Origin: a virus
Taxonomy: Duplodnaviria > Heunggongvirae > Uroviricota > Caudoviricetes
Virus record (IMG/VR): IMGVR_UViG_2693429524_000001
Location: 1-7,460 of that record
Length of the DNA stretch: 7,460 bases
Strand: one strand, 5' to 3'
The translations under genes and the position numbers were made by a program. The notes beneath the pieces were generated by a model. It was given only the letters and a program-made list of their open reading frames with translations, did no database searches and had not been told where the DNA came from. This document shows positions 5,330 to 7,460 of this stretch, piece by piece (within the stretch, counting starts at the first letter, position 1; each line of letters opens with the position of its first letter).

Positions 5330-5911
5330 TTACTTGTTTTTGCCATGCTTATCCTGAGCGATAAGTTCATCCATAAGGCTGTCTTTCTTCCCAGCAAACC
5401 TAATGTAGCACTCATTTCTATAGCGTTCAGGGATAACAAAACGGTCGATTTCAGGATATCCAGTAGCAGAAGGTATCCGAATAAGAAGCCCTTTTTCGAG
5501 CAATGAGATTGCTTCATGGCTTCCCTTTTCTGTCTTTAGCTGGTTATTCGCGGCTACAGCGAATGCCAAATACGCTCTTTCTCCAAGAGTTAACGAATCA
5601 AACAAATCTTGCACATATTTTTCTTCTTTAGATTTGCGCTTCTGAGCAGCGGATACCTCAATTCTTTCAGTCACAGCGTGATAAGCGGAATTAACAACAC
5701 CGTTAAGCACATAGCTAACGCAGAACAACAGGATGTAATACATCCAATAATGAGGAAGGATTTCTGGATTATGCAGGTTTATCCATTCTTTTACGCTTAC
5801 CGGCATAACAATAATCAATATGATCAGGATGATTAGCATATGAATCAACTGTTTAAGTGTCATTCCTTGCAGGAAAAAATGCATTAGTTCCTGCCACCAT
5901 GAGTTGTTCAT
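5330..5911 (-). CDS. sieB: Superinfection exclusion protein B (SieB), 193 aa, membrane-associated
   Basis: Product MNNSWWQELMHFFLQGMTLKQLIHMLIILIILIIVMPVSVKEWINLHNPEILPHYWMYYILLFCVSYVL... matches lambda SieB as I recall it. It is convergent with N, as in lambda. Hydrophobic N-terminal half. Confidence 0.75.
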   Translation of the reverse strand: MNNSWWQELMHFFLQGMTLKQLIHMLIILIILIIVMPVSVKEWINLHNPEILPHYWMYYILLFCVSYVLNGVVNSAYHAVTERIEVSAAQKRKSKEEKYVQDLFDSLTLGERAYLAFAVAANNQLKTEKGSHEAISLLEKGLLIRIPSATGYPEIDRFVIPERYRNECYIRFAGKKDSLMDELIAQDKHGKNK

Positions 5912-6054
5912 CGGCGTTTCTCTTTTGCTCTCTGTAGGGGTGAATAGAGTTTATCCGATTTCTCGCTGTAGGGGTACACGAGAACCACCGAGCCTGATGT
6001 GGTTAAAAGACAGGCACAATCTTTACTACCGCAATCCACTATTTAAGGTGATAT

Positions 6055-6504
6055 ATGGAAGAACAAGCAAACAAGATTCTCGTAGAACTACTGCAAAAAG
6101 CCAGTAATGGAATAGACGCGGCTGTTTCATTTAGCCAGGCACAGATTCCTGATGTTGTTCATCAGTTGCTGCTATGGAATATGGTTGACAGTCTGATTAA
6201 AACATTAATAGCCATTCTAACAATCCCACTGGTTTTCTGGTTTATGAAGAAGCAGTGCCAAAGAGTTGAGACAGGTAAAATCGGTGATGAAGGATACTCA
6301 TGGGAGAGGGGAAATCCCAAATACAGGCCGACAATGGTTTGGGATAGCAAAGGAGATATTAACCTTCTTATCATGCCATTGGTTGGAGTTTTGACTCTGT
6401 GGGGGATTTTTATTATTGGTGTAGTAACCAATATGACTTGGTTAAAAATTTGGCTGGCCCCAAAACTTTACCTTATCGAATATGCAGCATCATTGGTTAA
6501 GTAA
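6055..6504 (+). CDS. Hypothetical inner-membrane protein, 149 aa, two predicted TM helices
   Basis: Complete ORF with SD AAGGTG upstream. Hydrophobic segments LIKTLIAILTIPLVFWFM and INLLIMPLVGVLTLWGIFIIGVV. Divergent from sieB, in the PL-operon direction. No family recognised. Confidence 0.6.
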   Translation: MEEQANKILVELLQKASNGIDAAVSFSQAQIPDVVHQLLLWNMVDSLIKTLIAILTIPLVFWFMKKQCQRVETGKIGDEGYSWERGNPKYRPTMVWDSKGDINLLIMPLVGVLTLWGIFIIGVVTNMTWLKIWLAPKLYLIEYAASLVK

Positions 6505-7249: not shown

Positions 7250-7460
7250 TGAACCGCCCCGGGTTTCCTGGAGAGTGTTTTATCTGTGAACTCAGGCTGC
7301 CAGATCATCTTTTCCGATGGAAGCATAATAAGCTTTTTCTGCTTCTGCCGGAGGAGTATGGCCCAGCCTTCCCAGCAATCGTCGATTGTTATACCAGTCC
7401 ACCCACGTTAGTGTGGCCAGTTCCACTTCTGCACGGTTTTTCCAGCTCTTACGGTGTATT
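7250..7460 (-). mobile_element. IS3-family insertion sequence (IS629-like), right-end portion; element continues beyond the window end
   Basis: Terminal sequence TGAACCGCCCCGGGTTTCCTGGAGAG starting at 7250 matches my memory of the IS629/IS1203 terminal inverted repeat. The transposase stop is 42 bp inside this end. Confidence 0.6.
7292..7460 (-). CDS. IS3-family transposase OrfB (integrase-core C-terminus), partial: last 55 codons only
   Basis: Minus-strand translation ...IHRKSWKNRAEVELATLTWVDWYNNRRLLGRLGHTPPAEAEKAYYASIGKDDLAA* has the C-terminal motifs typical of IS3-family OrfB transposases. No start codon in the window. Confidence 0.8.
   Translation of the reverse strand, partial: IHRKSWKNRAEVELATLTWVDWYNNRRLLGRLGHTPPAEAEKAYYASIGKDDLAA

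Follow-up and report, generated by a model that had tools for sequence, protein, structure and literature searches.

The closest described counterpart of the region considered here is the sieB locus of phage P22. In the passages of two later papers that cite the original study, P22 sas is a 105-nt antisense RNA that pairs with the sieB mRNA (PMC12197685, citing Ranade & Poteete 1993), and under its action Esc, which is initiated internally, is translated in place of SieB (PMC12197685, PMC7067206, citing Ranade & Poteete 1993, Genes Dev 7:1498). A 2026 RNA-seq study, which cites the same work, lists P22A-sas as an RNA of 127 nt, UUCAUCGGCG...UACUACCGC (PMC13397905, Table 2). The P22 RefSeq record marks a 'sieB RNA start site' and a sieB promoter, annotates this one sieB start and no second, and gives esc as 24 codons shorter than sieB. 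A related arrangement is found in IS10, where the short antisense RNA-OUT overlaps about 35 nt of the 5' end of its mRNA, including the ribosome-binding site, and presents the complement of the extreme mRNA 5' end in a hairpin loop.

The DNA analyzed here, called the window throughout, is a stretch of 7,460 nt that is the immunity and early-left region of a lambdoid phage (Table 1). The + strand is the pL sense, because the pL-like promoter, the nutL-like site (which we take to be one from established knowledge of lambdoid nut sites) and the N gene all lie upstream on that strand, and sieB is counter-oriented within the pL operon. An earlier note, made from the sequence alone, had drawn attention to a 10-base motif that occurs twice in the interval between sieB and a 149-aa ORF, and it had placed this interval upstream of both divergent genes, correctly. 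The 149-aa ORF matches no Pfam family. Its start, ATGGAAGAA, is common to lambda orf28 and the P22 equivalent, and homology stops afterwards, so that a mosaic joint lies just inside the coding sequence. The homology shared by the window, P22 and lambda on this side (6017-6063) thereby covers the ribosome-binding site and first three codons of the downstream + strand gene; beyond the joint stand the 149-aa ORF in the window and orf28 in lambda and P22.

Table 1. Features of the window, with positions counted from its first base
Feature	Position	Strand	Basis or remark
CI-like repressor gene	4077-4727	+	ORF list, Pfam search
pL-like promoter (TTGACC, 17-nt spacer, TAAATT)	4818-4846	+	promoter scan; just downstream of CI-like repressor gene
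nutL-like site (boxA-like GCTCTTTAA, then boxB-like hairpin CCCGC-CGAAAT-GCGGG)	4893-4936, approximate	+	read from sequence
N-type antiterminator gene	5041-5313	+	Pfam N_peptide PF25694, E = 1e-15
sieB, 193 aa	5330-5911	-	Pfam SieB PF14163, E = 3e-24
internal Esc start codon (Met25 of sieB)	5837-5839	-	homology with P22 esc
sas counterpart	5907-6033	+	aligns with 127-nt P22A-sas; contains both motif copies and the 33-nt module
sieB 5' UTR, 30 nt	5912-5941	-	start at 5941 inferred from P22 annotation
motif copy 1	5932-5941	both	on - strand, +1 to +10 of sieB mRNA
sieB -10 hexamer TAAACT	5948-5953	-	inside P22-annotated promoter
stem-loop SL2 (UUCUCG, bulged C, UGUA, GGGG loop, UACA, CGAGAA)	5960-5984	+	RNAfold, RNAalifold
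motif copy 2	5966-5975	both	on - strand, about -34 to -25, over weak -35 region
33-nt module, predicted H-type pseudoknot	5984-6016	+	nearly invariant in >120 viral contigs
module helix S1, (A)CCAC with GTGG(T)	5984-5988 with 5999-6003	+	3 of 8 variant types compensated
module helix S2, GCCTG with CAGGC	5992-5996 with 6011-6015	+	compensatory changes
ORF of 149 aa, pL sense	6055-6504	+	ORF list

Several other features of the window can be noted in passing. A promoter-like site inside sieB (5835-5863, - strand; ATGACA, 17-nt spacer, TATGCT) overlaps the Esc start codon, and it is probably a chance match because its transcript would start downstream of the Esc ATG. An Rfam scan at E <= 1 gave three weak matches outside the sieB upstream interval, all judged to be chance. 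One of them, to 'snR191', covers inverted iteron-like repeats (ATCCCTC/GAGGGAT with T-rich spacers, 2928-3007) within an O-like replication gene (2438-3376, - strand), and these repeats are taken to be origin iterons rather than a snoRNA. At the right end of the window is a 44-aa ORF fragment (..LTWVDWYNNRRLLGRLGHTPPAEAEKAYY.., 7292-7426, - strand), which presumably resembles the C-terminus of an IS3-family transposase; if it is IS3-like, it would suggest that an insertion sequence truncates the prophage region there.

The sieB promoter and the sas antisense RNA

The interval upstream of sieB, although not recognized in the earlier note, belongs to a characterized region. P22 and lambda share about 95-100% identity with it upstream of their sieB genes (94.7% for P22 over 186 nt, 95.6% for lambda from motif copy 1 onward), and HK140, SPN9CC and many prophages are 98-100% identical to it. 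The base that the P22 record labels as the RNA start is homologous to 5941, the last base of copy 1, so the sieB mRNA should begin ACCCCUACAG. The annotated P22 promoter corresponds to 5948-5978, a segment that includes copy 2. On the + strand, copy 1 gives sas, by homology with P22, its complement to the 5' end of the sieB mRNA. Because the locus is the P22 PsieB/sas region, the element in the window is, as judged from this identity, a P22-type sieB promoter with its sas antisense RNA, and is already known. The earlier note was right to propose a regulatory role for the motif, and the comparison with sieB homologues that it suggested shows the motif to be conserved upstream of them.

PsieB itself is not called by a consensus promoter scan. 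The -10 hexamer in related loci is TAAACT, TAAAAT, TAATCT or TAGACT, mostly 6 nt from the motif with variable intervening bases. The candidates for a -35 hexamer in the window are poor (TACCCC, GTACCC or TGTACC, depending on the spacer) and have little likeness to TTGACA.

The relationship of sas to the sieB leader can be read from the alignments. The sas RNA of 105 nt described in the literature would match about 5912-6016 of the window. With the 127-nt form, the overlap of sas and mRNA spans 5907-5941 and covers the whole sieB leader and the ATG; in sas, the first 30-35 nt from the 5' end form the complement of the entire sieB 5' UTR and the start codon. The Esc start codon is left uncovered, 68 nt from the sas 5' end at about 5907. 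Overlap with the leader and ATG, and not with the Esc start, fits the published switch between SieB and Esc, in which SieB synthesis is blocked and Esc is spared, as far as base complementarity goes.

A search for a promoter of sas's own found no sigma-70-like site on the + strand in 5313-5907, and it is possible that sas comes from a weak promoter or from a processed pL transcript. A dedicated promoter using the TATACT found upstream of copy 1 in lambda was considered and rejected, since this hexamer is unconserved in other phages. The start of lambda sieB is annotated in two ways. In the lambda RefSeq record the gene starts at a TTG about 12 nt from the predicted mRNA start (L002, 1470-1500), and PGAP places the start about 72 nt further in, at ATGTATATG after GGAGAG (L137, 2427). 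With the PGAP start, a short sas-like RNA would leave the lambda ribosome-binding site uncovered.

The repeated motif, stem-loop SL2 and the 3' module

The motif CTGTAGGGGT occurs exactly twice in the window, with starts 34 nt apart, a count that confirms what had been reported from inspection. It is enclosed in a 17-nt repeat (TTGCTCTCTGTAGGGGT and TTTCTCGCTGTAGGGGT) in which 15 of the 17 positions are identical. The chance expectation for the motif with at most one mismatch is 0.23, and two or more matches were found in 6 of 200 shuffles; exact repeats of at least 9 nt at offsets of 20-59 appeared 6 times among 1560 shuffled 100-nt contexts. In lambda, HK620 and two other related loci (L020 and L130), copy 1 stands as a conserved island amid variable flanks. 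Related loci with CTGTAGGGGT as both copies of the repeat are called class A below.

Each copy had been described as sitting inside a short inverted repeat. The one around copy 2 is real and is larger than the CTCG..CGAG first noticed: TTCTCG/CGAGAA and TGTA/TACA together close a GGGG loop, and copy 2 runs from the bulged C of the resulting stem-loop, SL2, through the upper 5' arm and the GGGG loop to the first base of the 3' arm. The CTCT..AGAG around copy 1 is present in the window, yet lambda, HK620 and L130 do not conserve it, and no hairpin around copy 1 is predicted by RNAalifold from 14 diverse class A sequences. A hairpin at copy 1 was rejected for these two reasons; CTCTC is the complement of the sieB Shine-Dalgarno region. 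Two other interpretations of the G-rich motif were also rejected: CsrA-type GGA loops, because GGA is absent from class A loops, and a G-quadruplex, because there are just two G runs and none in the L028 class (see below).

The evidence for SL2 comes from a comparison of more than 130 related loci overall. Scanning IMG/VR with the conserved sequence just to the right of copy 2 yielded at least 120 loci with 76 distinct upstream contexts. SL2 was found in all 53 of the 53 unique contexts, and in every context the hairpin directly adjoins (A)CCACCGAGCCTGANGTGGTNAAAAGACAGGCA. There are at least 18 distinct lower stems, all fully paired, and the covarying arms include TTCTCG/CGAGAA, ATCCT/AGGAT, TTCTTGG/CCAAGAA, TGCTGG/CCAGCA and TACTGG/CCAGTA, as well as TCCTTTTA/TAAAAGGA and CTCGCTGTA/TATAGCGGG. 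Since the stems in this count were themselves defined by folding, a comparison of the two strands was used as an independent test. For 36 of the 37 unique sequences, SL2 is more stable as the + strand than as the reverse complement, with mean energies of -9.4 kcal/mol for the + strand, -6.7 for the - strand and -3.9 for shuffles. The difference is due to G-U pairs, which are A-C mismatches on the opposite strand, arguing that SL2 is selected in the pL-sense (sas) RNA.

RNAalifold recovered both SL2 and a hairpin of the adjoining module from the same 14 class A sequences. Single-sequence folding of the 127-nt RNA gives no advantage over shuffles for either strand (z = -0.47 and -0.17), and it is the comparison of related loci that argues for structure within it. 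SL2 was assessed with our own scripts, MAFFT having set the SL2 arms of different classes out of register; pair counts from alignment tools were applied to the module only, and the N-padded alignment was partly re-gapped. No Rfam family matches 5900-6054 on either strand (cmscan, E <= 1). The earlier suggestion of a structured RNA leader is partly right: RNA structure is involved, but it does not belong to the sieB leader, because the mRNA starts inside copy 1 (by homology with P22) and copy 2 lies upstream of the transcript.

SL2 abuts the 33-nt module, and the sequence to the right of the module diverges at once. The module is a probable H-type pseudoknot, with an A-rich linker between its helices. 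S2 is seen as GCCTG/CAGGC, GCCGGG/CCCGGC and GCCTGA/TCAGGC, and 100% of cells are paired, compared to 17-34% in controls with a slid partner. The first search pattern fixed S1, which therefore did not vary in that data set; S1 variants were collected in four extra scans, each requiring a change in the 3' arm. The compensated types are ACCGC/GCGGT (in two contexts), TCCGT/ATGGT and GCAC/GTGT, the last through a G-U pair, and the remaining 5 of the 8 types are single changes without compensation. S2 is the firmer of the two predicted helices. If the 105-nt size is correct, the right edge of the module (6016) is the 3' end of sas.

Origin and role of the two copies

The direct repeat, at an offset of 32-35, is limited to some classes of related loci, and none is present in the classes with a single hairpin. 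Besides class A, the two-copy classes are the Klebsiella type, with TGTTGGGGA as both copies in several variants, and L028, with TTTGACTGTGGAA as both copies. Common to them is a spacer with a TATCC core (TTATCCGAWT in class A and the Klebsiella type, TCTATCCAT in L028), which carries the conserved -10 hexamer on the - strand. I take this to mean that the two-copy layout would be ancestral to the two-copy classes; the copies differ between classes yet match within each locus, which, on the alignments, is concerted evolution. A protein-anchored search of genome contigs gave just three loci. Where SieB is just 52-55% identical as protein (Yersinia, Phytobacter), both copies are still exact. The 3' arm of the Yersinia SL2 is altered via G-U pairs, and its 5' arm and loop remain equal to copy 1, which argues for a sequence-specific constraint beyond pairing.

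A different kind of junction is seen in L026, L066, L079 and L022, where copy 1 and the - strand gene are replaced and homology returns inside the G run. These loci have an upstream CCCCCT...AGGGGG hairpin built on that G run. From the alignments, the junction has the look of a joint formed inside the motif by deletion or recombination.

One might suppose that the match between the copies has no function. A tandem duplication of about 34 bp, comprising a core promoter and hairpin unit, would automatically bring what had been the +1 region to where the new promoter has its -35; copy 1 would be kept for its role as transcription start and target of the antisense RNA, copy 2 for its place in SL2 or in the -35 region, and occasional unequal recombination between phages would keep the two alike. 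Weak similarity does extend past the 10-mer into the -10-like and discriminator parts (GGTTCT-CGTGT-ACCCC compared to TAAACT-CTATTC-ACCCC), and the peripheral positions of the copies drift apart. The region is also a hot spot of mosaic exchange, with breaks in homology that fall exactly at copy 1 (lambda) or within the G run (L026-type loci), and the match could perhaps be kept by unequal recombination without any function of the match itself. However, three classes with a common TATCC spacer have different repeats that match within each locus, and a repeated homogenization of repeats of 10-13 bp would thus be needed; the fixed 5' arm and loop of the Yersinia SL2 also speak against this explanation. 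We consider such a duplication an unlikely explanation, although one that deserves to be taken seriously.

The copies could instead be sites in duplex DNA, at which a repressor, an activator or RNA polymerase touches PsieB at -35 and +1, such contacts setting the level of sieB expression in the prophage. They do lie at classical regulatory positions of a mapped promoter, both are conserved as sequence, and help from an activator is conceivable because the -35 region scarcely resembles TTGACA. A binding protein that varies along with the motif is nevertheless not evident, since the same motif class occurs with different gene families and with different immunity and N types. Class A precedes genes for three SieB subfamilies and for the HK620 hkaP-like zinc-ribbon proteins as well as a small ORF, and with the Klebsiella type the genes are those of hkaP-like proteins and other ORFs; motif class does not track adjacent gene family, N type or immunity type. 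The motif is not palindromic, and a spacing of 34 bp, or 3.2 helical turns, puts the two sites on different faces of the helix. Nor would a DNA site explain the covariation of the SL2 arms or the G-U preference for the + strand RNA. The operator that had been suggested in the earlier note accordingly has no support, both because motif class does not track the adjacent genes or immunity and because the constraint on copy 2 falls on a + strand RNA hairpin, and a DNA site now seems quite improbable. For copy 2 itself, at a -35 or activator position, sequence by itself would not separate an RNA role from a DNA role.

The single-hairpin classes bear on another possibility, that of two tandem sieB promoters whose transcripts both begin ACCCCUACAG, with copy 2 as the start of a longer mRNA and the promoter of that mRNA inside the conserved module. 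In these relatives the junction of module and hairpin reads TTTTCA, an 18-nt spacer and TATNCT on the - strand, the - strand start codon follows within about 35-40 nt, and the Klebsiella-type equivalent of the -10 hexamer, GATCCT, retains the critical A and T. The equivalent hexamer in the window and P22, GGTTCT or TTCTCG, is without the essential A at position 2, the consensus scan calls no - strand promoter there, and the P22 record has just the one annotated start. We give little credence to a second promoter. The same single-hairpin classes have an AAGGA Shine-Dalgarno sequence and the start codon of the - strand gene directly beyond the hairpin, so that the 5' arm of the hairpin (UCCUU) is an anti-Shine-Dalgarno sequence.

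The interpretation preferred here, in which we have about even confidence, is that the two copies are functionally different parts of one sense/antisense control region, with an ancestry and a docking role as follows. The ancestral form would have been a single-hairpin cassette in which the antisense loop complements the 5' end of the counter-oriented mRNA. The active promoter would then have moved about 34 bp outward, and SL2 would have retained the old sequence, so that a loop-displayed complement to the mRNA 5' end presumably persists. Copy 2, displayed in this way, could provide fast initial pairing with the mRNA 5' end, much as in IS10 RNA-OUT/RNA-IN, and the full duplex of 35 bp over the ribosome-binding site would follow. 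The 3' module would set the position of the sas 3' end or shield it.

The calculated energies are favourable to invasion of SL2 by the mRNA. For mRNA nucleotides 1-17, pairing with the copy 2 region is predicted at -22.4 kcal/mol, as against -32.3 for the true complement, and a cofold of the mRNA leader with just SL2 and the module comes to -30.3 kcal/mol, as against -18.1 for the two separately. Docking is disfavoured by the state of the loop, in which the G residues of GGGG are just about 25% unpaired in the ensemble. The complement of mRNA +1 to +10 is made up of the SL2 loop and 5' arm and is mostly base-paired, the loop being only 4 nt; a GGGG tetraloop on a 4-bp stem would be predicted to make a poor kissing loop unless the upper stem opens.

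The wider cassette family and comparison with known systems

The hairpin and 33-nt module are not confined to sieB, and precede many unrelated counter-oriented genes located just after N or cI. Of 5426 complete E. coli genomes, about 850-1000 have the cassette, among them K-12 in its e14 prophage. The interval of the window is carried by 1010 of the 5426, and PGAP annotates nothing in it. In e14 (L154, 1460-1535, between ymfI and ymfH), a single-hairpin cassette, TTCCTTGCTTGCTGGCTGTGTGAGAACTCCAGCATA followed by the module, lies directly upstream of ymfI and is unannotated there; ymfI is counter-oriented after the CI-like ymfK and ymfJ. A literature search on transcription starts of ymfI and e14 gave nothing useful. 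In phage SfV (L007, 1150-1235), the cassette precedes an unannotated 81-aa - strand ORF (MTFDEKELDN...). The SfV hairpin has the arms TCCTTTTA and TAAAAGGA and the loop TGTATACGGGCT, and the SfV record carries a 'putative terminator' label on a neighbouring stretch. The SfV-type cassette occurs, unannotated, in 856 of 5426 E. coli genomes, O157:H7 included.

A further observation concerns the sequence to the right of the module, where a tRNA T-arm-like stretch, GGTTCGATTCC, lies about 40-60 nt away in L018, L029 and L097. Judging from its letters, it may belong to a tRNA or tRNA-like gene.

In the open-access literature that was searched, with the original 1993 papers outside its scope, neither the duplicated motif nor SL2, the module or the wider family is mentioned, and these sequences are found there in the P22 RNA-seq table only (PMC13397905). 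The duplication, SL2, the 3' module and the cassette family thus appear to be undescribed. A tentative and rather doubtful generalization is that sas would be the founder of a large family of antisense RNAs that are transcribed in the pL sense and have escaped annotation. The members would have two parts, an invariant pseudoknot 3' domain and, joined to it, a hairpin for targeting; the loop and 5' arm of this hairpin would be complementary to the 5' end and the Shine-Dalgarno sequence of a gene that is expressed in the prophage and runs the opposite way. Such an RNA would be a portable switch that silences diverse exclusion, abortive-infection or accessory genes once early-left transcription starts, and in the two-copy versions the second motif would be a docking site for the mRNA 5' end. 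If the family is a general off-switch for prophage-expressed exclusion genes in lytic growth, it would explain how self-exclusion is avoided; ymfI would then offer a tractable K-12 model of the cassette. This family-level lead is of more interest than the element in the window.

Among known prophage RNAs, AgvB and AsxR act in trans on host sRNAs and have a Rho-independent terminator (Tree et al. 2014, PMC4104026). They resemble the cassette in being short prophage RNAs whose 3' scaffold is conserved and whose 5' part, which does the targeting, varies, and in occupying a conserved lambdoid position where inserted genes are tolerated. Unlike the cassette, they lie downstream of PR' and stx, at another locus and with another sequence. 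An identity with AgvB/AsxR or the Pas prophage sRNAs was rejected on these grounds of different loci and different sequences, and the AgvB and AsxR Rfam families have no match in the window.

The fold of the preQ1-I riboswitch is an H-type pseudoknot with an A-rich third loop, and the topology of the module is the same: a 5-bp S1, the S2 5' arm in the S1 loop, an A-rich linker and the S2 3' arm. The likeness is topological only; the module has no sequence or covariance-model match, and its S2 is longer.

The likeness to IS10 RNA-OUT is one of layout. In the window, too, the antisense region overlaps about 35 nt of the mRNA, including the ribosome-binding site, and a hairpin would present a complement. 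In contrast to RNA-OUT, the sequence that the loop would present, copy 2, is a duplicate situated beyond the true overlap, the promoter scan of the window gave no site dedicated to the antisense RNA, and there is an extra conserved 3' module.

The closest system remains PsieB/sas/esc of P22, which occupies the same locus after N in the same orientation with about 95% sequence identity. Its sieB is the same, internal Esc start included, and the two copies are located at the annotated start and in the annotated promoter. The window differs from P22 in coming from an HK140-like lambdoid prophage of E. coli and in the gene that lies downstream.
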